From the NCBI RefSeq assembly GCF_045037415.1, contig NZ_CP173440.1: DNA of 64,000 nucleotides; one strand, given 5' to 3'. A program made the translations under genes and the position numbers. Shown piece by piece: positions 11,331 to 45,180 of the stretch; within the stretch, counting starts at the first letter, position 1; every line of letters starts with the position of its first letter. Source of the stretch: Escherichia coli. Lineage in GTDB: Bacteria > Pseudomonadota > Gammaproteobacteria > Enterobacterales > Enterobacteriaceae. Under the pieces are notes generated by a model. That model did not search any database, was not told the origin of the DNA, and saw only the letters and a list, made by a program, of their open reading frames with translations.

Positions 11331-12146
11331 ATGAGCCATATTCAACGGGAAACGTCTTGCTCGAGGCCGCGATTAAATTCCAACATGGATGCTGATTTAT
11401 ATGGGTATAAATGGGCTCGCGATAATGTCGGGCAATCAGGTGCGACAATCTATCGATTGTATGGGAAGCCCGATGCGCCAGAGTTGTTTCTGAAACATGG
11501 CAAAGGTAGCGTTGCCAATGATGTTACAGATGAGATGGTCAGACTAAACTGGCTGACGGAATTTATGCCTCTTCCGACCATCAAGCATTTTATCCGTACT
11601 CCTGATGATGCATGGTTACTCACCACTGCGATCCCCGGGAAAACAGCATTCCAGGTATTAGAAGAATATCCTGATTCAGGTGAAAATATTGTTGATGCGC
11701 TGGCAGTGTTCCTGCGCCGGTTGCATTCGATTCCTGTTTGTAATTGTCCTTTTAACAGTGATCGCGTATTTCGTCTCGCTCAGGCGCAATCACGAATGAA
11801 TAACGGTTTGGTTGATGCGAGTGATTTTGATGACGAGCGTAATGGCTGGCCTGTTGAACAAGTCTGGAAAGAAATGCATAAGCTTTTGCCATTCTCACCG
11901 GATTCAGTCGTCACTCATGGTGATTTCTCACTTGATAACCTTATTTTTGACGAGGGGAAATTAATAGGTTGTATTGATGTTGGACGAGTCGGAATCGCAG
12001 ACCGATACCAGGATCTTGCCATCCTATGGAACTGCCTCGGTGAGTTTTCTCCTTCATTACAGAAACGGCTTTTTCAAAAATATGGTATTGATAATCCTGA
12101 TATGAATAAATTGCAGTTTCATTTGATGCTCGATGAGTTTTTCTAA
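11331..12146 (+). CDS. aph(3')-Ia: Aminoglycoside 3'-phosphotransferase APH(3')-Ia (kanamycin/neomycin resistance)
   Basis: 271-aa product MSHIQRETSCSRPRLNSNMDADLYGYKWARDNVGQSGATIYRLYGKPDAPELFLKHG... Confidence 0.95.
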   Translation: MSHIQRETSCSRPRLNSNMDADLYGYKWARDNVGQSGATIYRLYGKPDAPELFLKHGKGSVANDVTDEMVRLNWLTEFMPLPTIKHFIRTPDDAWLLTTAIPGKTAFQVLEEYPDSGENIVDALAVFLRRLHSIPVCNCPFNSDRVFRLAQAQSRMNNGLVDASDFDDERNGWPVEQVWKEMHKLLPFSPDSVVTHGDFSLDNLIFDEGKLIGCIDVGRVGIADRYQDLAILWNCLGEFSPSLQKRLFQKYGIDNPDMNKLQFHLMLDEFF

Positions 12147-12283: not shown

Positions 12284-13103
12284 GGCACTGTTGCAAAGTT
12301 AGCGATGAGGCAGCCTTTTGTCTTATTCAAAGGCCTTACATTTCAAAAACTCTGCTTACCAGGCGCATTTCGCCCAGGGGATCACCATAATAAAATGCTG
12401 AGGCCTGGCCTTTGCGTAGTGCACGCATCACCTCAATACCTTTGATGGTGGCGTAAGCCGTCTTCATGGATTTAAATCCCAGCGTGGCGCCGATTATCCG
12501 TTTCAGTTTGCCATGATCGCATTCAATCACGTTGTTCCGGTACTTAATCTGTCGGTGTTCAACGTCAGACGGGCACCGGCCTTCGCGTTTGAGCAGAGCA
12601 AGCGCGCGACCATAGGCGGGCGCTTTATCCGTGTTGATGAATCGCGGGATCTGCCACTTCTTCACGTTGTTGAGGATTTTACCCAGAAACCGGTATGCAG
12701 CTTTGCTGTTACGACGGGAGGAGAGATAAAAATCGACAGTGCGGCCCCGGCTGTCGACGGCCCGGTACAGATACGCCCAGCGGCCATTGACCTTCACGTA
12801 GGTTTCATCCATGTGCCACGGGCAAAGATCGGAAGGGTTACGCCAGTACCAGCGCAGCCGTTTTTCCATTTCAGGCGCATAACGCTGAACCCAGCGGTAA
12901 ATCGTGGAGTGATCGACATTCACTCCGCGTTCAGCCAGCATCTCCTGCAGCTCACGGTAACTGATGCCGTATTTGCAGTACCAGCGTACGGCCCACAGAA
13001 TGATGTCACGCTGAAAATGCCGGCCTTTGAATGGGTTCATGTGCAGCTCCATCAGCAAAAGGGGATGATAAGTTTATCACCACCGACTATTTGCAACAGT
13101 GCC
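12284..13103 (-). mobile_element. IS26 copy 2
   Basis: 820 bp with IRs; identical to copy 1. Confidence 0.95.
12336..13058 (-). CDS. tnp26: IS26 transposase Tnp26
   Basis: Identical 240-aa ORF-track product. Confidence 0.95.
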   Translation of the reverse strand: MLMELHMNPFKGRHFQRDIILWAVRWYCKYGISYRELQEMLAERGVNVDHSTIYRWVQRYAPEMEKRLRWYWRNPSDLCPWHMDETYVKVNGRWAYLYRAVDSRGRTVDFYLSSRRNSKAAYRFLGKILNNVKKWQIPRFINTDKAPAYGRALALLKREGRCPSDVEHRQIKYRNNVIECDHGKLKRIIGATLGFKSMKTAYATIKGIEVMRALRKGQASAFYYGDPLGEMRLVSRVFEM

Positions 13104-19621: not shown

Positions 19622-19864
19622 TTAAGCCACCTTGTTTTGTTGGGGTAGCTGATCATAGTAAAACTCATTTGGTGTCATTTTGTCTAGACTCGAATGAGGT
19701 CGTTTCAAATTATAAAACTCAAAATATGCACTTAATTGCTTTTTCGCATCTGTGACACTGCTATAAGCTTTGAGATACACCTCTTCATATTTAGGAGAGC
19801 ATGAAAAACCTCGGGGCAGCCATCGAATGATGCCATCTACAGGGGTTAAAATAACCACCATCAT
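19622..19864 (-). pseudogene. C-terminal fragment of an IS3-family transposase (ISAba14-like remnant)
   Basis: 80-aa ORF ending ...YFEFYNLKRPHSSLDKMTPNEFYYDQL, typical of an IS3 OrfB C-terminus; family assignment from context. Confidence 0.5.
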
Positions 19865-19886
19865 TTCATAACAATACCTGCTGACT

Positions 19887-20477
19887 ATGAAGATCTACGT
19901 CATCAAAATAGCAGTTCATGGAGTCAGTCCGATGGTCTGGCGTCGGCTGAGAATTGCTGCCGACACGTCACTGGCCGCGCTTCACTTCATTTTCCAGATA
20001 GTGCAGGGCTGGGGGGACGACCATCTCCATCAATTTCACATTTATGGCAAAGATTACGGTATCTCCTACGAAGGAGGCATCGGTTTTGTCGATAATCCGT
20101 TCCGGGTCGTGATTGATGATTTTGCTTTTGATGCTGGCGATCGCTTTACCTATGAATACAATTTCTTTGAGCACTGGCTTCATGACATTCGTGTTGAGGC
20201 CATTTATGAAAACTCTACGCTGAAAGCGCCGTTTTGTATAAGCGGCCATGGTATGCCCGGAGCCACAGCTGCGGATGAGTTCGATAAAACCCTGGCGTTT
20301 CTTGAAGCTATCGTTAATGCGGATGATGAAACAACGGTCGGCGAGATCCGCCCTTTTGCTGACGACCTGGATGCTGTCAGGTTCAACCGCCACAAAATCA
20401 ACCGGCAACTGAGCAGGCTCGACCTTGCATCTCCGGTACTGGAGCCTGAAGTTATCTGGCTGGGCCGTCGTCGCTGA
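19887..20477 (+). CDS. Hypothetical protein (pRiA4b ORF-3-like family), first ORF of the ISKpn19-like element
   Basis: 196-aa product MKIYVIKIAVHGVSPMVWRRLRIAADTSLAALHFIFQIVQGW... Confidence 0.45.
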   Translation: MKIYVIKIAVHGVSPMVWRRLRIAADTSLAALHFIFQIVQGWGDDHLHQFHIYGKDYGISYEGGIGFVDNPFRVVIDDFAFDAGDRFTYEYNFFEHWLHDIRVEAIYENSTLKAPFCISGHGMPGATAADEFDKTLAFLEAIVNADDETTVGEIRPFADDLDAVRFNRHKINRQLSRLDLASPVLEPEVIWLGRRR

Positions 20478-20613
20478 CTGATGTCTATAAAGGTATACGT
20501 TTTCAGCATGCCTCTCAGATCCCCGAAAAAATGTCTATAAACCTCCCTAAATCAGTGTTTATGGATTATTCTTTAAATCTCTATGATGTTTAAAGACCTT
20601 CCGGAGGTTTTGC

Positions 20614-21186
20614 GTGCAATATGCCTACATCAGGGTAAGCTCGGCCGATCAGAATACGGCCCGTCAGGAAGAGGCATTGTCAAAGGCGGGTTTTCAGCCT
20701 GATAAAATTTGTGTTGAGCATGCCAGCGCGAAGGACACAAACCGCCCGGGGTTACAGGAACTCCTGGGGCAATTACGCCCTGGTGATACGCTTCTGGTTC
20801 ATTCCATCGATCGCCTTTGCCGGAATATGTCGGATATGTGCGCTGTCACCACCCGGCTTCGTGACCAGGGCGTTACCCTTATTTTTCTGAAAGAGCAGCT
20901 GACGTTCAGCGCCGGCACAAACAATCCGATGCAGGAACTGCAGCTGCACATGATGTCGGCATTCAGCCAGTTTGAACGAGCCTTACTGAAGGAAAGGCAG
21001 GCCGACGGCATCGCCGCGAAAAAAGCACGGGGTGAAAAAACAGGGCGCCCCGGCGCCGATATCAAAAAGATCCAGGAAATTGACGCACTCAGAAGCAGAG
21101 GGGTCAGGCTCAGGATCGCCTGCGACCATGCGGGCCTTGGCGTTTCCACATATTATAAGCTTCGTCACCAGATGAACAACCAGTAG
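20614..21186 (+). CDS. Small serine recombinase (resolvase/invertase family) encoded inside the ISKpn19-like element
   Basis: N-terminal YIRVSSADQ serine-recombinase motif and C-terminal HTH. Confidence 0.6.
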   Translation: MQYAYIRVSSADQNTARQEEALSKAGFQPDKICVEHASAKDTNRPGLQELLGQLRPGDTLLVHSIDRLCRNMSDMCAVTTRLRDQGVTLIFLKEQLTFSAGTNNPMQELQLHMMSAFSQFERALLKERQADGIAAKKARGEKTGRPGADIKKIQEIDALRSRGVRLRIACDHAGLGVSTYYKLRHQMNNQ

Positions 21187-21219
21187 CCGGGAGATAGTCA
21201 TCCACCACAGCAGGAGGCA

Positions 21220-22614
21220 ATGATGCAACTGACGCTCCAGATAGTCATCACCGATGAATCAGGCTCCAGTCGAACGGAGGAACTGATGACAATCCAGAAA
21301 TCAGGGGAAACCCGGAACGACATCGGATTATCGGTGTCAGAATCCAAGCTGTTGCTGAATACGGTCCAGCAGTCGGTGGTCCAGCTGCAGGCAGACGAAT
21401 ATACTCAACACCATATCCGGTGCCCTCACTGCCTTGCTGCGCGCAGAATCAAAGGCAAACAGAAAATACGGTACCGGACGCTGTTTGGCGTTATTCCGGT
21501 ATCCGGGCTTCGGGTGTACCGGTGCCGTTGTGAAGAGAGTGATACAAAGACAGTCAGTTTGCTCAGCGACTGGGCCGGCGATTATTCTCACCCGGCACTG
21601 AAATATATTGAAACCCGCTGGGCCTCGATGATCTCCTATGAAATGACGACTCGTCTGCTGAAAGATATTCTGCCGGTGGGCCACAGCCTGAATGCCTCAA
21701 CGGTGAGGAATCATTTATGCCAGGTGGCGCAGCGTCTTGACGCTGAGGCTGAAGCTCATTCAGGTTTTCTTTCCGGCTGCCCCCGCGACTGGGGGAACCT
21801 GCCCAGGCCAGGAAAACCGCTTGTGGTGGGTATAGATGGTGGTTATGTTCGCGATCGGGATGACAAAAAGCGTAATTTTGAAATTATTGCCGGGAAGTCT
21901 TTTTCCGTTGGTGCGCCTGCTGACACCCGCCGCTTCGGTTTTGTTCAGAAGGATGACTGTCATCCGGAACGCAGGCTCATGACCCACCTTTCAGCGCAGG
22001 GAATGCAGGCCAACCAGCAGATATTTTTTCTGTCCGACGGCGCGGATAATCTCAGGGACCTCCAGTTCGGTATGTACCCTGAGTCAACGCATGTGCTGGA
22101 CTGGTTTCATATCACCATGAGGCTGAAGGTGCTCATGCAATATGCCCGGGGACTGCTGGTATCAGATCCAGAGGCGGGGAGTAAAGTTCTGGCACTGCTG
22201 GAAAGCATTAAACGATATCTCTGGCATGGCAATGTTGTCGCTGCGCTGGAACATATTGATAATTGCGTTATGTATTGCGATGACCCTGAACTCAGCTATC
22301 CTAGCCTGAAATCCCTGCAAAAACATCTGGATGAAATGTATACCTACATCCGGAATAATAAGATGATGATCCCAAACTACGGCGAAATGCGTCGGTACGG
22401 AGAGCCGGTATCAACCGCGTTTGTGGAATCCACGATCAATGAAGTGATCGCCAGACGAATGGCCAAAAAGCAGCAGATGCAGTGGAGCAGAAAAGGGGCT
22501 CATTATTTGTTACAGACCCGGACCGCCGTTTTGAATAACGAACTGCAGGATAAATTTGTCTGCTGGTATCCGGGTTTTCAAAGTGACGGGAAGGGACCAG
22601 CGATGGCAGCATAG
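21220..22614 (+). CDS. ISKra4-family transposase (ISKpn19-like)
   Basis: 464-aa product; assignment from recalled family features and the ISKpn19-tnpR fragment-qnrS1 context. Confidence 0.7.
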   Translation: MMQLTLQIVITDESGSSRTEELMTIQKSGETRNDIGLSVSESKLLLNTVQQSVVQLQADEYTQHHIRCPHCLAARRIKGKQKIRYRTLFGVIPVSGLRVYRCRCEESDTKTVSLLSDWAGDYSHPALKYIETRWASMISYEMTTRLLKDILPVGHSLNASTVRNHLCQVAQRLDAEAEAHSGFLSGCPRDWGNLPRPGKPLVVGIDGGYVRDRDDKKRNFEIIAGKSFSVGAPADTRRFGFVQKDDCHPERRLMTHLSAQGMQANQQIFFLSDGADNLRDLQFGMYPESTHVLDWFHITMRLKVLMQYARGLLVSDPEAGSKVLALLESIKRYLWHGNVVAALEHIDNCVMYCDDPELSYPSLKSLQKHLDEMYTYIRNNKMMIPNYGEMRRYGEPVSTAFVESTINEVIARRMAKKQQMQWSRKGAHYLLQTRTAVLNNELQDKFVCWYPGFQSDGKGPAMAA

Positions 22615-22616
22615 CT

Positions 22617-23075
22617 CACGCTGCCCCAATATTTTTTATGCTCTCGGTCGTATGGAAGCTGGACCGCCTCGGTCGTGATCTTCGTCATCTCATTAATACA
22701 GTGCACGACCTGACCGCGAGGGGGACCGGTCTGAAAGTGCTGACCGGTCACGGGGCGACTATCGACACAACAACGGCCGCTGGCAAGCTTGTCTTCGGTA
22801 TCTTTGCCGCACTGGCGGAGTTTGAGCGCGAACTGATTGCTGAAAGAACGACTGCAGGTCTGGCATCAGCAAGAGCCCGTGGGCGGAACGGCGGCCGACC
22901 TTATAAAATGACGCCAGTCAAACTGCGACTGGCAATGGCATCAATGGGACAATCAGAAACAAAGGTCAGTACGCTATGCCAGGAACTTGGGATAACCCGG
23001 CAAACTTTGTACAGGCATATTTCCCCTGTTGGTCAACTGCGGGCGGACGGGATCAAGCTGCTCAACCGTGGATAA
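22617..23075 (+). pseudogene. tnpR: Tn3-family resolvase TnpR, 5'-truncated (lacks the catalytic Ser region)
   Basis: Product starts at ...KLDRLGRDLRHLINTVHDL, about residue 60 of resolvases. Confidence 0.7.
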
Positions 23076-23393
23076 TTTGAACGGACGGAAAAATCTGGGG
23101 TTCCGGCGTAGTACCCCTATCACCTCCACATTTTTGCAACAGTGCCTTATAAATGGCAGCCTTATGTTTACTTGCCAAGATGGGCTACCATATGATGTTT
23201 TATACTGAGCAATATTAATATTATCTTTAATGGAAAAATTAAGCCCACTAAGTGACCCACTGCTATATGGCTCTATTGTGAAGACGCCTGAGGGTAAAAA
23301 TTTATACATGGTTGTCCCTATGTCTATTATTGCAAGGTTGACAATATTATTCGTTTTATAAATTTGAGCGTTTAAAATCACACATCAAAGCAA

Positions 23394-24050
23394 TTAGTCA
23401 GGATAAACAACAATACCCAGTGCTTCGAGAATCAGTTCTTGCTGCCAGGCTGCAATTTTGATACCTGATGTATCGACTTTGCGGGGATCTAAACCGTCGA
23501 GTTCGGCGTGGCATAAATTGGCACCCTGTAGGCTAAATTGCCCCCAGACATCTTCGGAAAAAACACCTCGACTTAAGTCTGACTCTTTCAGTGATGCACC
23601 CGCTAGGTTCGTTCCTATCCAGCGATTTTCAAACAACTCACATTTTTCTAAACAAACCCTCTCCATATTGGCATAGGAAAGATTACATCCAGAAATAAAT
23701 GCTGAGCAAAAGTACATACGATTACTCACTTGATGGGCAAAGTTTGTTCGGGAAAAGTTGGCACCTTTTAAATCACACGCACGGAACTCTATACCGTAGC
23801 AATTGGCATTACTGAAGTTTGCCATCGCAAGTTGGCATTGTTGGAAACTTGCATCACGAAGATCTGCGACATCAAAGTGGCAGCCTTCGATATCACCCTG
23901 TTCAATGAACTTGCAGTTGACGAATGTCGTATCACGCAAGTTAGCACGTCGAAAGTCGCTGCGAATGAATGTGCAAGCGGTGAAGGTGAGATCACTTAAG
24001 TCTTTATGTGAAAAGTTGTGGTGCCGATATGTATGATTGTAGGTTTCCAT
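23394..24050 (-). CDS. qnrS1: Quinolone-resistance pentapeptide-repeat protein QnrS1
   Basis: 218-aa product METYNHTYRHHNFSHKDLSDLTFTACTFIRSDFRRANLRDTTFVNCKF... Confidence 0.95.
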   Translation of the reverse strand: METYNHTYRHHNFSHKDLSDLTFTACTFIRSDFRRANLRDTTFVNCKFIEQGDIEGCHFDVADLRDASFQQCQLAMANFSNANCYGIEFRACDLKGANFSRTNFAHQVSNRMYFCSAFISGCNLSYANMERVCLEKCELFENRWIGTNLAGASLKESDLSRGVFSEDVWGQFSLQGANLCHAELDGLDPRKVDTSGIKIAAWQQELILEALGIVVYPD

Positions 24051-25469: not shown

Positions 25470-25507
25470 GGGGTCTGACGCTCAGTGGAACGAAAACTCA
25501 CGTTAAG
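25470..25507. repeat. Tn3-type 38-bp terminal inverted repeat (GGGGTCTGACGCTCAGTGGAACGAAAACTCACGTTAAG)
   Basis: Read directly; overlaps the tnpA stop as in Tn3/Tn2. Confidence 0.85.
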
Positions 25508-27709
25508 CAACGTTTTCTGCCTCTGACGCCTCTTTTAATGGTCTCAGATGTCCTTTGGTCACCAGTTCTGCCAGCGTGAAGGAATAATGGCCGAGCATAT
25601 TGATATGTCCGTGGCAAAGCGGGGAGAGGCGTGCGATATCTTCATCATTCAGTGTTTCACCCTGCGCCCGGAGATGATCCAGGGCTGCCTGCATATAAAT
25701 AGTGTTCCATAACACGACGGCGTTAGTGACCAGCCCCAGTGTGCCCAGTTGATCTTCCTGACCGTCGGTATATCGTTTTCTTATCTCACCTTTTTGACCG
25801 TGACAGATGGCTCTGGCAACGGCATGGCGACTTTCTCCCCGATTAAGCTGGGTCAGAATGCGCCGGCGGTAATCTTCATCATCAATATAATTAAGCAGAT
25901 ACAGCGTTTTGTTGATGCGCCCCACTTCAATGATTGCCTGAGTCAGTCCGGAAGGACGTTCACTTTTCAGCAATGAACGGACCAGCACTGAAACCTGTAC
26001 TTTGCCCAGCTTCAGGGAGCCAGCGGTCCGGATCATTTCGTCCCACTGAAGGACTATTTTTCGGGGATCTGATTGCCCTCTGGCAATATCATTCAGCACG
26101 CCATAGTCGGCATCATGGTCCATTCGCCAGAAAACCGAAGCACCGGCATCAGCCAGGCGTGGAGAAAACTGGTATCCCAGCAGCCAGAAAAGGCCAAAGA
26201 CAAGTTCGCTGGCACCTGCTGTATCGGTCATAATTTCGGTTGGATTCAGCCCGGTTCCTGTTCCAGAAGACCTTCCAGCACAAAGATAGAGTCCCTCAGC
26301 GTCCCCGGTATAACGATGCCATGAAAGCCGGAATACTGATCGGACACAAAGTTGTACCAGGTGATCCCTCTGTTATTACCAAAGTATTTGCGGTTCGGTC
26401 CGGCATTGATTGTTCTGACTGGCGTAACAAAGCGCATTCCATCTGCAGATGCCACTTCTCCTCCACCCCATATCTGTGCCAGTGGCAGCGTTGCCTGAAA
26501 ATCAACCAGTCTGGCATTAGCGCTGGTGATAGTTTCAGCCCGCAGATAGTTCGCTTTTGTCCAGTTCAGCCGGTGTCGGGTCAGTGCAGGAACATTTGAT
26601 CTGATCAGTGGTTCCAGACCGATATTGCAGGCTTCAGCCATCAGCACGGCGCTGATGCTGACGGGCAGATCATCAACTCTGGCACTGGCTTCACTAGCAT
26701 GGAAAAACTCATCAGCAAATCCGGTATGGGCGTTAATTTCGAGCAGCAACTCCGTTAAATCCACCGGAGGGAGTAGATCACTGATCATTTTGCTCAGTCG
26801 TTTCAGACTGTCCGGCTCATCAAGACTGGCGAGGGGAGAAATTGTCAACCGGGGCTTCGGGCCAGAAACATCGAGTTCGACAGCCTCATTTTCGCAAAGA
26901 CGTGCAGCAACCTGTCTGTAACGACTATCAAGCTGATGACCCAGAGATTTTATTGCTTCCTGCGGGTCTGTCGGGTGCCCCAAAGAACGATAAACCTTAA
27001 TCCGGTTTGCCTGCCAGTCAGCACCCTGTAGTAATCTTGCACGAGGATCTCCCCACCGGTTACTGCCGGTAACGTAGACATCCCTCCGCCTCAGACTATC
27101 CTGCAGTTTACTGAGAAAGCAGAGCGTGTATCCCCTGCGGGTGATATGTTTTTCCTTGTTAATCACCAGCCGTTTCCATGACCGACTGATAATTTCCGTT
27201 GGTGCGTCGTCAAAAAACTGCCGCCGTGAGCTGAACTCCCGGCTGAGGTAGTCACAGGCATTCAGAGTGGTAACCCCGGCAGGTGCGGATGAAAATTTAA
27301 CGGTATTCAGCAGATGGGGCAGGAAACGACGAACGCGCCCGTACTGCTCCACCATTTCTTCATGAAAATTATCGTCTGAGGGCCGGGCAATTTCACGGAC
27401 AAGCGTGATGATTTCAGCCAGCTTTTGCCTTGGGATGTAGCTGAACACCTCAGCACGAATCGATTCGTCCGGTGTTTCTTCTTTCAGCAGGTACGAACAT
27501 GCGCTGGCGAGCGCCAATGCAGATTTATCCAGATCCTTCAGCGAGCGGAGCCGTTTTTTCTGCCCAATCTTTCTGGCGTCACGGATGATAACGGCCAGCA
27601 TGGCGTCCAGAACGTCCAATGCATCATCCAGCGCCAGCGTTTCCCATGCAAGGACAAAGGCAACCAGAACCGCCATCCTTTTCTGCGGTGACATCCTGGC
27701 AATATTGAA
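25503..27709 (-). pseudogene. tnpA: Tn3/Tn2-type transposase tnpA, 5'-truncated by IS26 (first ~280 codons missing) with a frameshift near 26231-26246
   Basis: ORF-track products 26246-27694 and 25503-26231 are colinear with TnpA but in different frames; the reading frame runs up to the IS26 boundary. Confidence 0.85.
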
Positions 27710-28529
27710 GGCACTGTTGCAAAGTTAGCGATGAGGCAGCCTTTTGTCTTATTCAAAGGCCTTACATTTCAAAAACTCTGCTTACCAGGCGCATTTCGCC
27801 CAGGGGATCACCATAATAAAATGCTGAGGCCTGGCCTTTGCGTAGTGCACGCATCACCTCAATACCTTTGATGGTGGCGTAAGCCGTCTTCATGGATTTA
27901 AATCCCAGCGTGGCGTTGATTATCCGTTTCAGTTTGCCATGATCGCATTCAATCACGTTGTTCCGGTACTTAATCTGTCGGTGTTCAACGTCAGACGGGC
28001 ACCGGCCTTCGCGTTTGAGCAGAGCAAGCGCGCGACCATAGGCGGGCGCTTTATCCGTGTTGATGAATCGCGGGATCTGCCACTTCTTCACGTTGTTGAG
28101 GATTTTACCCAGAAACCGGTATGCAGCTTTGCTGTTACGACGGGAGGAGAGATAAAAATCGACAGTGCGGCCCCGGCTGTCGACGGCCAGGTACAGATAC
28201 GCCCAGCGGCCATTGACCTTCACGTAGGTTTCATCCATGTGCCACGGGCAAAGATCGGAAGGGTTACGCCAGTACCAGCGCAGCCGTTTTTCCATTTCAG
28301 GCGCATAACGCTGAACCCAGCGGTAAATCGTGGAGTGATCGACATTCACTCCGCGTTCAGCCAGCATCTCCTGCAGCTCACGGTAACTGATGCCGTATTT
28401 GCAGTACCAGCGTACGGCCCACAGAATGATGTCACGCTGAAAATGCCGGCCTTTGAATGGGTTCATGTGCAGCTCCATCAGCAAAAGGGGATGATAAGTT
28501 TATCACCACCGACTATTTGCAACAGTGCC
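27710..28529 (-). mobile_element. IS26 copy 3, variant encoding Tnp26 with G184N and R93L
   Basis: 820 bp with IRs; nucleotide differences from the other copies are cag vs ccg at ~28189 and tt vs cc at ~27916-27917. Confidence 0.95.
27762..28484 (-). CDS. tnp26: IS26-variant transposase (G184N, R93L in the 234-aa numbering)
   Basis: Product has AYLYLAVDS and KRIINATLGF where the other four copies have AYLYRAVDS and [10 protein letters not shown]. Confidence 0.9.
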   Translation of the reverse strand: MLMELHMNPFKGRHFQRDIILWAVRWYCKYGISYRELQEMLAERGVNVDHSTIYRWVQRYAPEMEKRLRWYWRNPSDLCPWHMDETYVKVNGRWAYLYLAVDSRGRTVDFYLSSRRNSKAAYRFLGKILNNVKKWQIPRFINTDKAPAYGRALALLKREGRCPSDVEHRQIKYRNNVIECDHGKLKRIINATLGFKSMKTAYATIKGIEVMRALRKGQASAFYYGDPLGEMRLVSRVFEM

Positions 28530-29284
28530 GTGTACATCGAAATACGGCTTATCAGGCGTTAAAAGATGCTTGCGATGACTTGTTTGCAAGACAATTCAGT
28601 TATCAGAGTCTTAGTGAAAAAGGTAACACTATTAATCACAAATCAAGATGGGTGAGCGAGGTGGCTTATATTGATAATGAAGCTGTCGTTAGACTTATTT
28701 TTGCCCCTGCTATTGTGCCTTTAATTACTAGGTTAGAAGAACAATTTACAAAGTATGAAATACAACAAATAAGTAATTTAACAAGTGCTTATGCTGTTCG
28801 TTTATATGAAATATTGATTGCATGGCGTAGTACTGGAAAAACGCCTCTCATAACTATGTATGATTTTAGACAAAAAATAGGTGTACTCGAGACTGAATAC
28901 AAACGAATGTATGATTTTAAAAAATATGTTTTAGACATTGCATTAAAACAAGTAAATGAACATACCGATATTATTGTCAAAGTTGAACAGCATAAAACAG
29001 GTAGATCTATTACTGGTTTTTCATTTAGCTTTAAACAGAAAAAATCAGCCACGCATTCAGTCGAATCTAAAAGAGATCCGAATACATTAGACCTCTTTTC
29101 AAAAATAACAGATAAACAACGCCATCTATTCGCCAACAAGCTCTCAGAGCTTCCTGAGATGAGTAAATATTCACAAGGCACAGAAAGCTATCAGCAGTTT
29201 GCTGTACGTATAGCTGCCATGCTGCAAGATGCAGAGAAATTTAAGGAATTACTTCCTTTACTCAGAAAATTAGGATTTCAATGA
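28530..29284 (+). pseudogene. Rep_3-family plasmid replication initiator, 5'-truncated by IS26 (Acinetobacter-type, as in Tn1548)
   Basis: C-terminal region ...LYEILIAWRSTGKTPLITMYDFRQKIGVLETEYKRMYDFKKYVLDIALKQVNEH...; low GC. Confidence 0.6.
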
Positions 29285-29350
29285 CATTGTTAATTGAAAT
29301 TGTTAAGTTAACAGTCAGGTATTAACACAAGTTGAAAACTGGTTTACATA

Positions 29351-29893
29351 ATGAAAAAACTGTCAGTTTCAGAGTTAGCTAAGCTTTATGGATATTCAAG
29401 ACAAGCCATATATGCACATATAAACAAAGGAAATTTATCTAAAGGATCTGATGGATTAATTGACTTTTCAGAGGCCCTAAGAGTTTTTGGGGAACCACAA
29501 AAAAAAGAGGATACAGTCAATCAAAGTCAATCAATTAACAGTCAAAACTTGACAGAAGTTGACTTACTAAAACGTCAAGTTGACATACTGGAAAAACAAT
29601 TAAATCAGGCAATACAGAGAGAAAATCAATCTTTAGAACGTGAATCGTTTTATCAAGAACAGATTGAAGCTATGCAGCGCTTACTAGAAGCACCAAAAGC
29701 CAATATGACTACCTTTACCGATCAGAGCTTTAAACAGGATATAGCAACGGATCCTCGGTCGGAACTAGCAACGAACTATGACGAATTGACTACTCCTCAG
29801 CAAGACAATAAGCGTATTCCTATCCCGGAGCATGTTGAACCAGAACAGAAGAAGAGAGGCTTCCTAAGCCGCTTTTTCCTTCCATATGGTTAG
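29351..29893 (+). CDS. Hypothetical HTH DNA-binding protein downstream of the rep fragment
   Basis: 180-aa product with N-terminal HTH-like segment (LSVSELAKLYGYSRQAIYAHINKG) and a coiled-coil middle. Confidence 0.45.
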   Translation: MKKLSVSELAKLYGYSRQAIYAHINKGNLSKGSDGLIDFSEALRVFGEPQKKEDTVNQSQSINSQNLTEVDLLKRQVDILEKQLNQAIQRENQSLERESFYQEQIEAMQRLLEAPKANMTTFTDQSFKQDIATDPRSELATNYDELTTPQQDNKRIPIPEHVEPEQKKRGFLSRFFLPYG

Positions 29894-30251
29894 CCAAGAC
29901 TCCAGTTTTTTGAAGAGCCAATTTCAGTGCAAGCACTTGAAATAATGACTCCTCAAAAAACCGGATGATGTTTATTAAAACTGAATAAAACCGTGGAACA
30001 TCGCTCAATTAGTGATCGTGGAACATGAATAATCAATAAAAAGCCGTTCTGGTGCCCTATACTCCAGAACGGCTTACGTTAATATAATGATATTTAAAGA
30101 GAAATATCAAGCATTTCGTATAAGAAATTTTATGTTAAATGATTGTTAGAAATGCCCCTTGATCGAGGCATTTTCTATAAAGAATACTAAAAACTAATTA
30201 AAGCCAACCAAGTTTCAAAACAAGGCAGTTCTCAGCAATCATATTTTTAAA

Positions 30252-31136
30252 TTATATAACTCCCAACTGAGCTTTTGCTCCAACGATAAGGCTTTCATTT
30301 TGAGTTTCTAAGGCAAATAAACCATACATCAAAGGAGAGGCCGCTGCTCTTTCTAAAGTCTGTTCATATAGTTTATTCCAAACTTTACCCCCTAGTTTTT
30401 CATACTCGATGATTAGAGTTTTGAGGCTTTCTTCTCCAAACAAAGTTACATGCCCAGCAAAATCAATCGCTGGGTCATCTATATGGGCTGTTGACCAATC
30501 AATAACGCCTGAAACAGCTCCATCCTTTGAAGCTAGTACATGCCCAGCATATAAATCGCCATGTATAAATTGGGTGAAATCTGCCCATAGAACATCATTA
30601 TCCAACCATTTTCTGTAGCGGGTTTCCAATTGCTCACTTATACCAATTTCAGATTTTACTAACTGCAAATTGTTTGCTATTTCAGGTCTTAAATCTGAAG
30701 GTTTCATAATTTTCAAATCATTTTCCCGAACTTCTTTTTCAGGAATACTATGGATTTCAAATAAGGTTTTTGCCAAAGATGTTATGTATTTCGGGCTATC
30801 TTTGTCCATATTCCAAATTATTTCATAGGTTTCAGCATCCAAATTTAAAACAGGATTATCTTTAAGTATGGGATAAGCCACTAATTCTGTAGATGAAATT
30901 CTCCAATCAGGAACCTCTACAGAAAGATGTTTTTTTACCAATTCTAAAATGCGTTTTTCTTTCTTGATTTGTTCCCTCATGCCATCACGACGAGGAATAC
31001 GCAGCAACCATTGTTGCCCCTTTGTATCAAGAGCAAAAACGACCTTAAAATCAATGCCCATTTCATTGAAATTCATTTTGTCCGTAAGCAACAAGCCGTG
31101 TGCTTCAGCAAGTGATTGAATATCTTGAATTGTCAT
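30252..31136 (-). CDS. mph(E): Macrolide 2'-phosphotransferase Mph(E)
   Basis: 294-aa product MTIQDIQSLAEAHGLLLTDKMNFNEMGIDFKVVFALDTKGQQWLLRIPRR... Confidence 0.95.
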   Translation of the reverse strand: MTIQDIQSLAEAHGLLLTDKMNFNEMGIDFKVVFALDTKGQQWLLRIPRRDGMREQIKKEKRILELVKKHLSVEVPDWRISSTELVAYPILKDNPVLNLDAETYEIIWNMDKDSPKYITSLAKTLFEIHSIPEKEVRENDLKIMKPSDLRPEIANNLQLVKSEIGISEQLETRYRKWLDNDVLWADFTQFIHGDLYAGHVLASKDGAVSGVIDWSTAHIDDPAIDFAGHVTLFGEESLKTLIIEYEKLGGKVWNKLYEQTLERAAASPLMYGLFALETQNESLIVGAKAQLGVI

Positions 31137-31191
31137 TTTTAATTTCCTTTAAAGAGTTCAATAATTAATGTTCGGATTAGATTGGCTATCA

Positions 31192-32667
31192 TTAACAATC
31201 TCTCTCAAAAGTCTTGATGATTTTGTGGTCTTTGATCTCGTAGATAATGTCAGCAATATTATCGACCAATTGCTTGTCATGAGATACGAAGATAATAGTT
31301 CCTGCATAGGACTTCATCATTGTTTCTAATGCGGCAATACTTTTTAGGTCAAGATAGTTTCCTGGTTCATCCATAAGCAAAATATTATATTTTCCTAAAA
31401 GCATTTTGGATAAAAGCAGTTTGATGATTTCACCTCCCGATAAGTCGGATAAGTTTTTTTGAATATCATTCGCTCCGATCCCCATTGAAGCCAATACTGC
31501 ACGAATTTCCGCAACTGTGTACTCGCACTCTTCCTGCATAAAGGAGAGCACAGATTTATGCGTGTTAAATTTATATCCTGTTTGTGTAAAGTAGCCAATT
31601 TCAGCTTTTGGAGATATGGTTAATCCATCAGCACGTTCTGATATCATTTTTAACAAGGACGTTTTCCCTGTTCCATTCGATCCAGTTATAGCGACTTTAG
31701 CGCCAAGCGGTATTATAAAGTTAGCGTCATCAAAGATAGTACGGCTACCAAATTTTAAGCTCAGACCATCTGCCGTAATCGGGAACTTATTGTGCAGTTC
31801 TAGGGCTGAACTTTGACGAAAACGAATAGAACGCAAATGCTCTGGTGCTTGAATATCTTCTAATGCAGCCAAACGCTTTTCCATACTCTTAGCTGCCTGA
31901 TACAGTTTTCTTTGCTTGGTGCCAGTCATTTTTGCATGCCCAAGTCGTCCAGCACTTTCGGTAGAGTTTTTGGATTTTTCTCCTTTTTTCTTATTGTCTA
32001 ATCGATTAGCTTGCTGGCGTTTTTCTTGCACAGCAGATTCTAATCGCTCCCGTTCCTTCATCATCAGCTCATATTCTACGGCTTGGTGTTGTCGCTCTTC
32101 TTCTTTTTGACGCAAGTAATCCGAGTAACCACCCCAATATTCCGTAATTTTACCGTCTTTTAACTCCCATATCTTGTCTACAACCATATCAAGAAAATAT
32201 CGGTCATGACTGATAACAAGTAATGCTCCATCAAATGCTTTAAGTTGACCAATAAGTAGATCTATTCCATTGAGATCAAGGTGGCTGGTTGGTTCATCCG
32301 CTAGAATGCCATGTACTTGTTGGGAAAATGCGGCAGCAATTTTTGCACGAGTTTCCTCTCCGCCACTCATTGTGTCGTTTTGTACATTGGAAACACCAAG
32401 GCGAGATAACATTGCCCGGTCTTCGACCGTTTCTATTTCGATTCCGCCCAGTTGGCTGATATGTGCAAAATCACCAAAACGCTGTAATGTCGCTTCGGCT
32501 AAAACAATTTCGCCATTAAGTACTTTGAGTAAACTACTCTTTCCTGCTCCGTTATCACCCACAAGACCAATACGGTCATAAGAGTGAATTTCCAATTCAT
32601 CAATATCCAAAACATCACGCCCAGCATAATCCAAGCGTATGTTTCTCGCTTTAATAATTAAACTCAT
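31192..32667 (-). CDS. msr(E): ABC-F ribosomal protection protein Msr(E) (macrolide resistance)
   Basis: 491-aa product with two ABC domains, [48 protein letters not shown]... Confidence 0.95.
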
Positions 32668-33065
32668 TTTTATTTACTCCTGTTTAGCTCTTGAAATTTT
32701 TTATGCAGCAAACAGGATTTAGGTGAAAACAAAAGCTAGCATCACAGTGTCCTCCCAAAAAAAAAGCTATTCATCCACAGGGTGGACAAATAGCTAGTCA
32801 ATTAAGTTATAACTGGAAACTATGCACTAAAAGCATACTTATAAATTAAGCATACTTTTACTTTATATATCCGCATATATTCTTAAAGACACAACAAAAG
32901 CCCACCATTATAAAATAGTGTCACTATGCAAATAGTTGTGTCTTAACGAATGCGGATAGAATGCATAAACTTACCTAAAAAATAAAATTCAGTTTTATGA
33001 TAACTTTACTGTTAAAAGAAGTCTAGACAACCTGAGGGATCCCCACAAAATTTCCATTCATACAA

Positions 33066-34250
33066 TCAGCTATCAGCCTGTTTGATTACTGCCCAGTCCC
33101 ACTGAACCACCCACTGTAGTATTTGTTTAAGTCCCTGCTGATAATATTGCCTGCGTATTCGCTGTTTGGGTTCTTTGCAAAGTAATATCCCAAGGAAATT
33201 CAGGGCCAATACCCGCCTATTTTTAACGGTGTTAGCTTGATAACGCAGGTGCAAACCCGCTTTCTCCGCTGCGCTACCTAGCAGGTAATGAAACCAATTA
33301 ACCAATGCGGCCAGTAGTAGCAGTATCTCTAAGCGAGATTTCTTCTTGGTACCATGCAAATCGCTACCCAGGCCATAGCGGTGACTTTTCTGATCACGGA
33401 AGCTTTCTTCAATTTGCATTCGGCTACTGTAGCACTTAGCAATTTTATCCGCATACCCATGGCAGTCAGCTAAGGATGACACCAACAACCATGGTTCCTT
33501 ATACGTCTTATTTTTATCGCGTTTCAATAGCTTATAACCTTTGCCAACCAGGACGGCCTGCGTTTCATAGTGTTGTGTTTGGGCAAGCATGATTTTTCCT
33601 ACACTTTTTGGATCCTTCTTCGCTTGCCGATAAAGCTGATTAACACTGATAAACTTGTCCTGCTCTGCCAATTTAAGCTTCACATTGCCTCGAACTCTAG
33701 CTACATAATGCCATCCCAGCTTACGCACTTGTTTCAGCCATGGAACTTTAAACCCCGCGTCAGTGACAATTACGGGCTTACAGTCCTTGGGTAGCATGGC
33801 TTTAAGCTGCTTTAAAAACGCCCCGTGTAGGTGTGGGCAGGTATAATCTTCTGCGGCGGCAATCTTCTGTAGCAGAGTCAACGCTCTACCGTCAGCGGCA
33901 ATGCTGGCACGCAGGATAAAGTGTCGCTTGGCAGTATCGGCATTGCTCCAGTCAACCAAAATCATCGGCTTAGTTTTATGGCCAACAATAGAAGCCGTCA
34001 GCGCAGCATAAATCAATGGCAGCTCTCGTTGCAGGTTAGGATTATTGAGTAGACGATCTGCCCGTTTGATACTGACCTTATCTGAAGAGCCAGGCATCGC
34101 CCGGCCAATCGCAGTAACGGTGCAACACGCATCCTTTGCCAGGGCGGTTACCGCATCTAGCAAAACCGAAAATCGGGCTTTATGCATTGATTTTGGCGTG
34201 ACAAAGGTGAGGAAATCAGCGAGCATAGCTTTTACATTCATGGTGAGCAT
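33066..34250 (-). CDS. IS4-family transposase (ISEc29-like)
   Basis: 394-aa product; position between armA and msr(E) as in Tn1548. Confidence 0.75.
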   Translation of the reverse strand: MLTMNVKAMLADFLTFVTPKSMHKARFSVLLDAVTALAKDACCTVTAIGRAMPGSSDKVSIKRADRLLNNPNLQRELPLIYAALTASIVGHKTKPMILVDWSNADTAKRHFILRASIAADGRALTLLQKIAAAEDYTCPHLHGAFLKQLKAMLPKDCKPVIVTDAGFKVPWLKQVRKLGWHYVARVRGNVKLKLAEQDKFISVNQLYRQAKKDPKSVGKIMLAQTQHYETQAVLVGKGYKLLKRDKNKTYKEPWLLVSSLADCHGYADKIAKCYSSRMQIEESFRDQKSHRYGLGSDLHGTKKKSRLEILLLLAALVNWFHYLLGSAAEKAGLHLRYQANTVKNRRVLALNFLGILLCKEPKQRIRRQYYQQGLKQILQWVVQWDWAVIKQADS

Positions 34251-34965
34251 CCGCGGTGTGGGAGTTTTGGCGAATGATCAGATCAGGAACCGCCATGAAT
34301 GTTCCCCAATCAACTAACATTTTATTTTAACTACAGAATTTCTGGGGATACCTCAGGTGGTTTGCAACTCTTTGGTTTAATTGGTTTGATTTATGGGCCA
34401 ATTATTTTTGCGTTAACCATGGTGCTGTTACGGCTTTATACTATTGAGTTTAAAGATTTTCTGGAACGCCAAGACAATAGCTAACAATAAGATTGTTGTA
34501 CTTTAGCGCTTCGCCCTGCCCATATCGGTATACAGTGCATTTACGGGAGAAAAAACGGCTCAAACAGGAAAAAATGAAATGACTGAGTCAGCCGAGAAGA
34601 ATTTCCCCGCTTATTCGCACCTTCCCTAGATTGCTTTTGAGCCATGCATGCATTTGTTTTTAACCTTCTAAACTGTAGTTGAAACCTATCTTTTCCTCAA
34701 AATATCCTCTATGTTGTCCAAGGAAAAGATAATCCAAAACTTTGGAAAAACATAGTAAGTGTTTCAGAATTGCACTTGATAAACGAAACTTCATTACTTA
34801 ATAATAACTATACAGCATCTATCCGTTATAGAAGTCAGGATACACCAGTAAAAGTAACCCAGAATGAAAATGGATATATATTTGAATTTTCTGCACCACA
34901 ATGGGCTCCAGCCGTTGGACAGAGTTTAGTACTTTTCCAAGAAAATGAGTGCCTTGGAGGCGGAG

Positions 34966-35739
34966 TTATTTCTGAAATCCACTAGTAATATATACTAACT
35001 CATTCCCTATAACCTTCGAATCAAGGATTTTTATCCAACCTTTTGTAAAAGATTCAAACCATAGCTGGTAATTCTCTTCCATTCCCTTCTCCTTTCCAGA
35101 TAAAGACTTTATTGGAAAAGATATTACAAAGTTTTGAGTATGAAAAAGCTGTAGGAAATCCAAGATATTTACATCTTGCTGTTTTAGCACAGGAAGCATC
35201 TTTAAAAGGAATACTACATCATAAGTACCTTTGTAGACATCACTCTCTTTATTCAAAAACCTATACTTTATCGTCGTCTTTAACTTCCCAATAATGCTAC
35301 TCAAAAAAGCTATCTCAGCTCTATCAATATCGTATGCATGATATATTATTTTTTCATTTTCATTCCATTGGTATAAAGCTAATGGATTGAAGCCACAACC
35401 AAAATCTAAAATAGATGAGACATGTTTGATATTTCCAAATACATAAGTGTAAAAGTCATTTAATGTTGCGACTCTTTCATTCGTCGAAGAATGAATCTTT
35501 AGTAAATCTTCTATTGATAACTGCCCCTGATTGTACTTTTTTAATAATTTATCCCAATTAGGATAGGCAGAATAGTAAGACCCCCATATTTGATGCAATT
35601 TCTTTTTAGAATAATTCTCAACTTCCTTTAATTTATATTTCTTCTCAGAAATGGAAACAACCTTTTCAACAATATCTGAATCAAGGTTTTCGTACTTTTT
35701 TGATTCAAGTATCTTCTTAACAACATCATTCTTATCCAT
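34966..35739 (-). CDS. armA: 16S rRNA (guanine1405-N7)-methyltransferase ArmA (pan-aminoglycoside resistance)
   Basis: 257-aa product MDKNDVVKKILESKKYENLDSDIVEKVVSISEKKYKLKEV...; the ORF-track entry 34966-35808 has an N-terminal extension. Confidence 0.95.
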   Translation of the reverse strand: MDKNDVVKKILESKKYENLDSDIVEKVVSISEKKYKLKEVENYSKKKLHQIWGSYYSAYPNWDKLLKKYNQGQLSIEDLLKIHSSTNERVATLNDFYTYVFGNIKHVSSILDFGCGFNPLALYQWNENEKIIYHAYDIDRAEIAFLSSIIGKLKTTIKYRFLNKESDVYKGTYDVVFLLKMLPVLKQQDVNILDFLQLFHTQNFVISFPIKSLSGKEKGMEENYQLWFESFTKGWIKILDSKVIGNELVYITSGFQK

Positions 35740-35952
35740 TTGAAAGAACCTACAAGTTAAGTATTTGATAGGAACTGTCATTTCGGGTTTTTTGCGGTTT
35801 CGGGTCAAAATTCGGTTTTTCCCCCAAACTACGACTGTTTTCGCACCCCGAACAACTAATCCAATCAGAATTTTCCGGCAACGCCGACTCTAAGAAGTGT
35901 AATTCCAGTCCATTTCTGCCGTCAACCCCTGATTCGCGTTAATGCGACAAAG
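35740..35952 (-). mobile_element. Remnant upstream of armA (ISEc28-type end expected from Tn1548 context), truncated by IS26
   Basis: Non-coding ~210 bp between armA and the IS26 IR; identity inferred from context only. Confidence 0.35.
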
Positions 35953-36772
35953 GGCACTGTTGCAAATAGTCGGTGGTGATAAACTTATCATCCCCTTTTG
36001 CTGATGGAGCTGCACATGAACCCATTCAAAGGCCGGCATTTTCAGCGTGACATCATTCTGTGGGCCGTACGCTGGTACTGCAAATACGGCATCAGTTACC
36101 GTGAGCTGCAGGAGATGCTGGCTGAACGCGGAGTGAATGTCGATCACTCCACGATTTACCGCTGGGTTCAGCGTTATGCGCCTGAAATGGAAAAACGGCT
36201 GCGCTGGTACTGGCGTAACCCTTCCGATCTTTGCCCGTGGCACATGGATGAAACCTACGTGAAGGTCAATGGCCGCTGGGCGTATCTGTACCGGGCCGTC
36301 GACAGCCGGGGCCGCACTGTCGATTTTTATCTCTCCTCCCGTCGTAACAGCAAAGCTGCATACCGGTTTCTGGGTAAAATCCTCAACAACGTGAAGAAGT
36401 GGCAGATCCCGCGATTCATCAACACGGATAAAGCGCCCGCCTATGGTCGCGCGCTTGCTCTGCTCAAACGCGAAGGCCGGTGCCCGTCTGACGTTGAACA
36501 CCGACAGATTAAGTACCGGAACAACGTGATTGAATGCGATCATGGCAAACTGAAACGGATAATCGGCGCCACGCTGGGATTTAAATCCATGAAGACGGCT
36601 TACGCCACCATCAAAGGTATTGAGGTGATGCGTGCACTACGCAAAGGCCAGGCCTCAGCATTTTATTATGGTGATCCCCTGGGCGAAATGCGCCTGGTAA
36701 GCAGAGTTTTTGAAATGTAAGGCCTTTGAATAAGACAAAAGGCTGCCTCATCGCTAACTTTGCAACAGTGCC
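35953..36772 (+). mobile_element. IS26 copy 4 (opposite orientation to copies 1-3 and 5)
   Basis: 820 bp with IRs. Confidence 0.95.
35998..36720 (+). CDS. tnp26: IS26 transposase Tnp26
   Basis: Identical to the copy 1 product. Confidence 0.95.
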   Translation: MLMELHMNPFKGRHFQRDIILWAVRWYCKYGISYRELQEMLAERGVNVDHSTIYRWVQRYAPEMEKRLRWYWRNPSDLCPWHMDETYVKVNGRWAYLYRAVDSRGRTVDFYLSSRRNSKAAYRFLGKILNNVKKWQIPRFINTDKAPAYGRALALLKREGRCPSDVEHRQIKYRNNVIECDHGKLKRIIGATLGFKSMKTAYATIKGIEVMRALRKGQASAFYYGDPLGEMRLVSRVFEM

Positions 36773-42842: not shown

Positions 42843-43662
42843 GGCACTGTTGCAAAGTTAGCGATGAGGCAGCCTTTTGTCTTATTCAAAGGCCTTACAT
42901 TTCAAAAACTCTGCTTACCAGGCGCATTTCGCCCAGGGGATCACCATAATAAAATGCTGAGGCCTGGCCTTTGCGTAGTGCACGCATCACCTCAATACCT
43001 TTGATGGTGGCGTAAGCCGTCTTCATGGATTTAAATCCCAGCGTGGCGCCGATTATCCGTTTCAGTTTGCCATGATCGCATTCAATCACGTTGTTCCGGT
43101 ACTTAATCTGTCGGTGTTCAACGTCAGACGGGCACCGGCCTTCGCGTTTGAGCAGAGCAAGCGCGCGACCATAGGCGGGCGCTTTATCCGTGTTGATGAA
43201 TCGCGGGATCTGCCACTTCTTCACGTTGTTGAGGATTTTACCCAGAAACCGGTATGCAGCTTTGCTGTTACGACGGGAGGAGAGATAAAAATCGACAGTG
43301 CGGCCCCGGCTGTCGACGGCCCGGTACAGATACGCCCAGCGGCCATTGACCTTCACGTAGGTTTCATCCATGTGCCACGGGCAAAGATCGGAAGGGTTAC
43401 GCCAGTACCAGCGCAGCCGTTTTTCCATTTCAGGCGCATAACGCTGAACCCAGCGGTAAATCGTGGAGTGATCGACATTCACTCCGCGTTCAGCCAGCAT
43501 CTCCTGCAGCTCACGGTAACTGATGCCGTATTTGCAGTACCAGCGTACGGCCCACAGAATGATGTCACGCTGAAAATGCCGGCCTTTGAATGGGTTCATG
43601 TGCAGCTCCATCAGCAAAAGGGGATGATAAGTTTATCACCACCGACTATTTGCAACAGTGCC
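42843..43662 (-). mobile_element. IS26 copy 5
   Basis: 820 bp with IRs. Confidence 0.95.
42895..43617 (-). CDS. tnp26: IS26 transposase Tnp26
   Basis: Identical to the copy 1 product. Confidence 0.95.
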
Positions 43663-45180
43663 CTTTCGACTACCTCCCCTCAAAGCCATATCACGTACGT
43701 TAATCCTGACTTCATTAAAATCAGTGGTTTCACTGAGGAAGAACTATTAGGCCAGCCTCACAACATCGTAAGACACCCAGATATGCCGCCTGCTGCATTT
43801 GAGCATATGTGGAGTACATTAAAATCTGGCCGCTCATGGATGGGGCTAGTAAAAAATCGCTGTAAAAATGGCGACCACTATTGGGTAAGTGCTTATGTAA
43901 CGCCAATAGCTAAGAATGGTTCGATTGTTGAATACCAGTCTGTAAGGACCAAGCCTGAACCTGAGCAGGTTTTGGCTGCGGAAAAATTATATGCTCAATT
44001 GAGAAGCGGGAAGGCCGCGAGGCCGAAATTGGCTGCTAGCTTTTCCGTGAAAATACTCTTGCTCATATGGGGTAGTATTATATCAAGCGCAATGGCTGCC
44101 GGCATGCTTACTGATACATCAATAAGCAGCTTATTGTTAGCCACTTTAATGTCAGGAAGCTTAAGCTCTGTTAGTGTTTTGGCTATTCTCTCTCCTCTTG
44201 GAAGACTGGTTGAAAGAGCCAGGAATATTTCCAATAACCCATTAAGTCAATCCCTCTACACTGGGCGCACCGATGAGTTTGGCCAAATAGAGTTTGCTTT
44301 ACGAATGATGCAAGCTGAAACAGGCGCCATAGTAGGTCGCATAGGTGATGCATCAAATCGGCTTAGCGAACACACCCGAGGCCTACTAAAGGATATTGAG
44401 TCAAGCAATGTACTTACAGTTGAGCAGCAGGCAGAGACAGATCAAATAGCAACGGCAGTAAACCAAATGGTGGCAAGCATTCAAGAGGTTGCGAGCAATG
44501 CACAGCATGCTGCAGATGCGGCCGGAAGAGCAGACACTGAGACGGCATCTGGCCAGCGTCTGGTAGCCCACACAAGCCAGTCAATCACTGCCCTTGAAGG
44601 TGAAATTAGGCAAGCCACTCAGGTTATTCATGAGCTTGAAGGTCAAAGTAACGAGATATCAAAAGTTCTTGACGTTATACGAGGGATCGCCGAGCAAACG
44701 AATTTGTTGGCACTCAACGCAGCAATTGAGGCCGCGCGTGCTGGTGAGCAGGGGCGTGGTTTTGCTGTTGTCGCCGATGAGGTTCGCAGTCTTGCTGCTC
44801 GCACACAGCAATCGACAACGGATATTCAAAGCATGATCAGCGCTCTACAAGAGCGAGCGCAATCCGCTGTTACAGTCATGGAGCAAAGTAGTCGGCAAGC
44901 GCACACGAGTGTAGCTCACGCAGAGGAAGCAGCTACAGCTCTTGATGGAATTGGCCAACGCGTTAACGAAATTACCGACATGAACGCGCAAATAGCGACT
45001 GCGGTCGAGCAGCAGGGAGCAGTAAGTGAAGACATAAACCGCAGTATTATCAATATACGCGATGCTGCTGATACCAATGTACAGACCGGGCAGAATAATT
45101 TGCAAAGTGCGAAATCTGTCGCTCAGTTAACTAGCGCTCTGAGCGAACTGGCAAAACAGTTTTGGGAAAAACGAGGATAA
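43663..45180 (+). pseudogene. Methyl-accepting chemotaxis protein with PAS domain (Aer-like), 5'-truncated by IS26
   Basis: After the IS26 end the frame reads a PAS-like segment ([41 protein letters not shown]), two TM helices, then an MCP signalling domain ([35 protein letters not shown]). Confidence 0.75.

Follow-up and report, generated by a model that had tools for sequence, protein, structure and literature searches.

IS26 is the main assembler of resistance regions in plasmids of Gram-negative bacteria. A search for its terminal repeats across the window, i.e. the whole stretch of 64,000 nt of DNA analyzed here, returned ten perfect sites that pair into five complete 820-bp elements, in agreement with the five copies counted in a first-pass annotation made from the same sequence. 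All five carry perfect 14-bp terminal repeats (GGCACTGTTGCAAA) and, when oriented on tnp26, copies 1, 2, 4 and 5 are identical to each other at 820/820 bases. The elements are:

10445-11264, minus strand: IS26 copy 1, wild-type reference sequence
12284-13103, minus strand: IS26 copy 2, wild type; together with copy 1 flanks aph(3')-Ia
27710-28529, minus strand: IS26 copy 3, 820 bp, identical to the other four copies at 817/820 bases
35953-36772, plus strand: IS26 copy 4, wild type, in the opposite orientation to copy 3; armA side, flank CGACAAAG
42843-43662, minus strand: IS26 copy 5, wild type, bordering a chemotaxis-protein gene of the backbone

Eight-bp target duplications, sought at all five copies, flank none of them, and a search for inverted-duplication signatures linking the five likewise found none. 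Copies 1 and 2 form direct repeats around aph(3')-Ia (11331-12146), i.e. a Tn4352-like pseudo-compound transposon, and this unit adjoins an mph(A)-mrx-mphR-IS6100-chrA-sul1-qacEdelta1-dfrA segment; an IS6100-like element is located at 6333-7212. In addition, an orphan 14-bp IS26-type end (GGCACTGTTGCAAA) lies at 23133-23146 (minus strand) between the ISKpn19 transposase gene and qnrS1, with no adjoining IS26 sequence and no partner repeat within 19800-23200.

Copy 3 differs from the other four at exactly three bases, at IS positions 341, 613 and 614. The first-pass annotation had attributed to this copy alone three nucleotide changes that give R93L and G184N, and the alignment of the five copies bears this out to the base. 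Its features, from the left to the right end of the element, are:

28516-28529, minus strand: IRL of copy 3, directly adjoining the Tn1548 repAciN fragment; flank ATGTACAC in tnp26 orientation
28189, minus strand: IS position 341, G>T (C>A on the plus strand); codon 93 CGG>CTG, i.e. R93L
27762-28466, minus strand: tnp26 coding sequence of copy 3, 234 aa plus stop; Tnp26 R93L/G184N
27917 and 27916, minus strand: IS positions 613/614, GG>AA; GGC>AAC, i.e. G184N
27710-27723, minus strand: IRR of copy 3, abutting the truncated Tn3-family tnpA; flank TTCAATAT in tnp26 orientation

Copy 3 qualifies as an IS26 in its length, its ends, its identity and the architecture of its transposase: it spans 820 bp, has perfect 14-bp GGCACTGTTGCAAA ends and encodes a single 234-aa transposase, with the reading frame and both terminal repeats intact. 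Relative to reference IS26 (Tnp26 WP_001067855.1), it is the same at 817/820 bases and 232/234 residues, and its Tnp26 keeps the DDE triad (D78, D138 and E173) as well as D175, H176 and K180 of the E-DH---K signature described for the family in PMC6807381. What sets it apart from the reference are two substitutions in the catalytic domain, one of them at a family-invariant arginine, such that with Leu in place of R93 the family-invariant residues of the catalytic core are not all retained. The R93L/G184N protein is already in RefSeq, annotated as WP_040211370.1 in NZ_CP084395. In the literature, we found neither a description of this protein nor a published report of R93L in IS26 or of the activity of an R93L/G184N double mutant.

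Tn1548 junction and descent of the allele

Copy 3 lies between a remnant of the armA transposon Tn1548 on one side and a truncated transposase gene on the other:

28530-35952: Tn1548 remnant, between copies 3 and 4
within 28530-35952: repAciN fragment and DNA-binding protein gene of the Tn1548 remnant
30252-31136: mph(E), Tn1548 remnant
31192-32667: msr(E), Tn1548 remnant
33066-34250: ISEc29 transposase, Tn1548 remnant
about 34966-35740: armA, Tn1548 remnant
25503-27709, minus strand: remnant of a Tn3-family tnpA truncated by copy 3, covering profile positions 250-954 of 954

On the IRR side of copy 3, the truncated tnpA leads towards qnrS1 (23394-24050); on the IRL side, the repAciN fragment is where the msr(E)-mph(E) arm of Tn1548 terminates. 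At the far end of the remnant, copy 4 is positioned ~210 bp upstream of armA. The complete Tn1548 is bounded by directly oriented IS26 copies and includes a class 1 integron/ISCR1 part. In contrast, copies 3 (minus strand) and 4 (plus strand) bracket the remnant in inverted orientation, with both IRL ends pointing inward. The junction itself is that of Tn1548, in which IS26 meets repAciN, downstream of msr(E)-mph(E), at precisely the base seen in pCTX-M3. More broadly, the window matches large IncFIB/IncHI1B plasmids of Klebsiella pneumoniae that carry NDM-1, armA and qnrS1; its first 25 kb are spanned in one piece by no single plasmid in PLSDB.

Within the tnpA remnant, a 1-bp deletion at ~26231-26255 relative to every related record examined splits the gene into two ORFs (25503-26231 and 26246-27694), and this deletion near 26255 probably reflects either a mistake in the assembly or a private indel. 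The assembly of the window is hence not error-free, and the three differences in copy 3 could in principle be sequencing or assembly errors of this record as well. The chance of this is negligible, however: the same three substitutions are present in independent assemblies, namely in 23 PLSDB plasmids and in 8/8 double-variant loci examined in a large collection (from 24 contigs read, with 129 blocks listed), and two of the three changes constitute the well-known G184N pair. Three further allele-bearing loci have the same three bases, and a fourth proved to be a frameshifted assembly. Given this recurrence across many independent assemblies, we exclude sequencing error as the source of the copy 3 changes.

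G184N is reported to raise IS26 activity (Pong et al. 2019, as cited in PMC9412624, PMC9019673, PMC12540391, PMC7986276 and bioRxiv 10.1101/2024.02.20.581145). Its best-described carrier in these sources is IS26-v1 (also IS15-delta-1 or IS15DI), which is stated to differ from IS26 by 3 nt, two of them giving the sole substitution G184N (PMC9412624, PMC6807381), and to have enhanced cointegration activity (PMC9412624, PMC9019673 and PMC7986276, all citing Pong et al. 2019). The first-pass annotation was thus right to name G184N as the substitution of the more active variant, but copy 3 is not itself IS26-v1/IS15DI. The two are alike in their length of 820 bp, their terminal repeats and the adjacent GG613/614AA changes that result in G184N. 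However, IS26-v1/IS15DI has the silent G459A and one amino acid change, whereas copy 3 has G459, G341T and two amino acid changes; without G459A and with R93L as a second substitution, its assignment to IS26-v1/IS15DI was rejected.

According to PMC12540391, G184N is carried by both IS26 v1 and v3. Among ten loci encoding G184N-only Tnp26, seven showed the v1 pattern, i.e. silent G459A plus GG613/614AA, and three had GG613/614AA alone. Across PLSDB, a G184N 42-mer had 9,005 occurrences spread over 4,167 plasmids, and the A459 marker had 7,266 spread over 3,431, which leaves about one fifth of the G184N copies as the two-base form. Where it sits at the repAciN end of Tn1548, this two-base form is probably the one called IS26-v3.

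Indeed, pCTX-M3 (NC_004464.2) has an IS26 with GG613/614AA only at the identical repAciN junction (flank ATGTACAC), which matches copy 3 in sequence and junction except for a single base, G341T. pCTX-M3 is the plasmid from which Tn1548 was originally described; compared with it, the IS in the window is inverted relative to the armA-side IS26, and the window lacks the integron half of Tn1548. The two-base allele is further found at both junctions (ATGTACAC/TTCAATAT) in the Providencia rettgeri plasmid pNDM15-1091 (IncT) and in an IncC plasmid of Proteus mirabilis. These comparisons show that G184N is ancestral to copy 3 and that both junctions predate R93L. The description that suits copy 3 best is a Tn1548-associated, two-base G184N allele to which a single SNP has been added.

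The distribution of this SNP was followed with a T341-centred 41-mer, which cannot seed on wild-type IS26 under megablast. It was detected in 23 of 72,556 PLSDB plasmids (24 places), all of them from K. pneumoniae. A 391-bp query reaching from the repAciN junction through position 341 matched all 23 of these records at 100%, and matched dozens of plasmids from other genera at 99.7% (G341). T341 was also present in two of 5,426 complete E. coli genomes, and one of these, at a copy-3-type site, had the same junction context. At the protein level, the Tnp26 forms were represented as follows:

Wild-type Tnp26 (P0002): 73,074 blocks of the large collection
G184N-only Tnp26 (P0001): 23,917 blocks of the large collection
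R93L plus G184N Tnp26, as in copy 3 (P0003): listed in 129 blocks of the large collection
R93L-only Tnp26 (P0004): 8 contigs

The eight double-variant loci examined in this collection agree not only in the three bases but also in the 3′ flank, which is shared by all other double-variant copies examined. Seven of them have the repAciN 5′ flank, and the eighth, on a 4.27-Mb chromosome (CP015347.1), has the armA-side flank that is occupied by copy 4 in the window. Target-site duplications were found at none of the double-variant copies examined. In PLSDB, the T341 allele occupies ~1 place per record (24/23), as compared with ~2.2 places per record for G184N alleles. The double-variant allele resides on IncFIB/IncHI1B (~350 kb) and IncFII/IncR (~110-140 kb) K. 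pneumoniae plasmids from several countries. G341T is hence a SNP of single origin on a resident IS and does not mark a variant element that was acquired separately.

That one of five copies should have a private substitution is ordinary, since IS26 and IS26-v1 together account for 92% of all copies (bioRxiv 10.1101/2024.02.20.581145), leaving ~8% to minor alleles, and since the 90% cluster of the IS26 transposase comprises 4,851 distinct sequences. Copy 3 is, in this respect, an ordinary minor IS26 allele and an ordinary lineage marker.

Residues 93 and 184 and the predicted activity of copy 3

From 1.84 billion representative proteins, we kept 60 IS6-family relatives of Tnp26 with <90% identity (40-70%) that span residues 75-190. 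R93 is Arg in all 60 of them; D78 is likewise invariant, and D138, E173 and K180 are each conserved in 59/60. In a 27-sequence alignment, R93 belongs to the 13 invariant columns, together with D78, D138, E173 and K180. Position 184 is Arg or Lys in 49 of the 60 relatives and rarely Gly, making Gly184 of IS26 (window 27915-27917) an outlier state that may bear on the activity gain of G184N.

In an AlphaFold model of Tnp26 built on the alignment of the relatives (mean pLDDT 92.2), D78 is placed in strand 75-84, R93 near the end of the neighbouring strand 87-96 and D138 just after strand 134-137, while E173, K180 and G184 map to helix 170-184, of which G184 is the last residue. R93 is part of strand beta-2 of the RNase-H-like catalytic core and of the motif YLYRAVD. 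A fold search with Tnp26 returned the ISCth4 transposase as the best match, followed by retroviral integrases, in which a valine, i.e. a hydrophobic residue, aligns with R93; neither the sequence search nor the fold search found a structure of an IS6-family transposase.

The invariance of R93 in 60/60 relatives makes it more likely that R93L weakens the transposase than that it leaves the hyperactivity conferred by G184N intact. On conservation and the structural model, the replacement of Arg93 by Leu would most simply be expected to lower Tnp26 activity, an expectation that we consider rather likely to hold. The first-pass annotation had proposed that copy 3 could drive rearrangement of the region at a higher rate. 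Our data do not support this proposal, and the direction of the effect is probably the reverse, as it leaves aside R93L at an invariant residue and as the allele occupies one and the same junction in 23/23 PLSDB records.

Copy 3 would be hyperactive, and rearrange the region faster than the wild-type copies, if G184N dominated and R93L were neutral. G184N is reported to raise the cointegration frequency (Pong 2019, via citing papers), the frame and both terminal repeats of copy 3 are intact, the integrase residue aligned to R93 is hydrophobic, and plasmids of this family vary in structure around their IS26 copies. This variability is, however, explained equally well by wild-type copies together with homologous recombination. 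Moreover, R93 is invariant among the 60 relatives, the double variant is confined to the repAciN junction in all 23 PLSDB records, with ~1 place per record against ~2.2 for G184N, and no double-variant copy examined is flanked by a target duplication. We consider neutrality of R93L unlikely, and copy 3, judged by these alignments and by the model, is probably not a more active IS26 copy.

The explanation that we favour is that copy 3 is the IS26 bounding the repAciN end of the armA transposon Tn1548, that its two-base G184N (without G459A) was inherited from an IS state already found in pCTX-M3, and that a further single G>T at IS position 341 arose once, in K. pneumoniae plasmids, giving R93L. 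The comparison of alleles demonstrates these steps of descent, with G184N inherited and G341T following. R93L would then most likely lower or abolish Tnp26 activity and thereby cancel the gain from G184N. Left in a passive role, copy 3 could still offer 820 bp of homology for RecA recombination or gene conversion with the four wild-type copies, and it would act as a poorer partner in the targeted conservative reaction of Tnp26, which reaches full frequency only if tnp26 is intact in both partners. The latter is suggested by the report that inactivation of tnp26 in either partner reduces targeted cointegration 30-fold (Harmer et al., PMC4196232). The occurrence of T341 at one place per record and the lack of target duplications fit an impaired copy 3. 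Taken as a whole, i.e. inherited G184N, R93L arisen once and most likely an impaired element, we regard this explanation as reasonably probable.

Several points speak against impairment. Leu may be tolerated by the fold, given the Val counterpart in integrases; the R93L-only copies found in unrelated-looking contexts (see below) could reflect a moving, R93L-bearing IS instead of recombination or repeated mutation; and the allele is young and rare, so that its absence from new sites is weak evidence of inactivity. The tnp26 reading frame of copy 3 is, besides, intact.

R93L could also have been selected as a second-site change, taming the G184N copy and thereby stabilising the armA/qnrS1 junction, or shifting the balance between copy-in and targeted conservative reactions. 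It did hit an invariant residue of the catalytic core in an allele that already had an activity-raising change, and the allele persists across several K. pneumoniae plasmid types and several countries. Yet hitch-hiking with successful resistance plasmids accounts for this persistence, the allele has been lost from nine of the 13 sister plasmids that share the 10-kb arrangement, and a single origin provides no convergent signal. We thus hold selection to be improbable, and R93L as a selected change that would tame the G184N copy, or separate copy-in from the targeted conservative reaction, to be if anything a shade more so. If selection did act, the invariant Arg of YLYRAVD would be a control point of IS26 reaction choice.

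For the reading of IS26 variants, this means that G184N in a given copy cannot be interpreted alone, as a further substitution, at an invariant catalytic residue, can be present in that very copy. The point that deserves experiment is the effect of R93L on Tnp26; should R93L be shown to inactivate the transposase, this would be the first functional assignment of that invariant arginine.

Allele as a marker of plasmid history

The three marks of copy 3 serve as a lineage marker, but one that can be moved or wiped out when IS26 copies recombine with each other. The sister plasmid phvKpST147_NDM1_1659 (CP072810) carries wild-type IS26 at the exact copy-3 junctions, and over 10 kb it differs from the window by those three bases and one indel. 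Bit scores imply wild-type IS26 at the copy-3 site in ~6 more plasmids with the 10-kb arrangement; of the 13 plasmids that share this arrangement, the T341 list includes four with the allele and leaves nine without it. T341 alone, i.e. R93L without G184N, occurs at the copy-5, copy-4 right and copy-3 junctions of related plasmids (L033, CP173541.1; L034, CP145360.1; and L035), and the R93L-only protein is also encoded in two seemingly unrelated contexts.

These patterns imply that marks have been exchanged or erased between IS26 copies on related plasmids. The cause is likely to be either gene conversion or homologous recombination between copies that are nearly identical over 820 bp, or an exchange at the IS ends mediated by Tnp26. 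With wild-type IS26 at identical junctions and T341 alone at other sites, the allele is a weak marker of acquisition. The first-pass annotation had taken copy 3 to mark a separate acquisition of the qnrS1/Tn1548-side segment: of this, the Tn1548 ancestry stands, borne out by the junction and by the two-base G184N shared with pCTX-M3, and the separate acquisition is not supported. The allele of copy 3 points to Tn1548 ancestry and cannot reliably delimit a separately acquired segment. More generally, single-base marks in IS26 that are exchanged between copies on one plasmid are unreliable records of separate acquisitions. T341 nevertheless provides a convenient tracer, tagging K. pneumoniae armA/NDM plasmids that form a network around a single, shared Tn1548 junction.

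In the plasmid lineage of NZ_CP084395.1 and the window, IS26 copies commonly carry private SNPs. In the sister plasmid NZ_CP084395.1, which contains a duplicated armA-sul2 block, T325A is present in the IS26 at the copy-5 site and in its duplicate, and G789C at the copy-2 site; the IS26 copies with these private SNPs are located at 9045-9864, 12284-13103 and 42844-43663.
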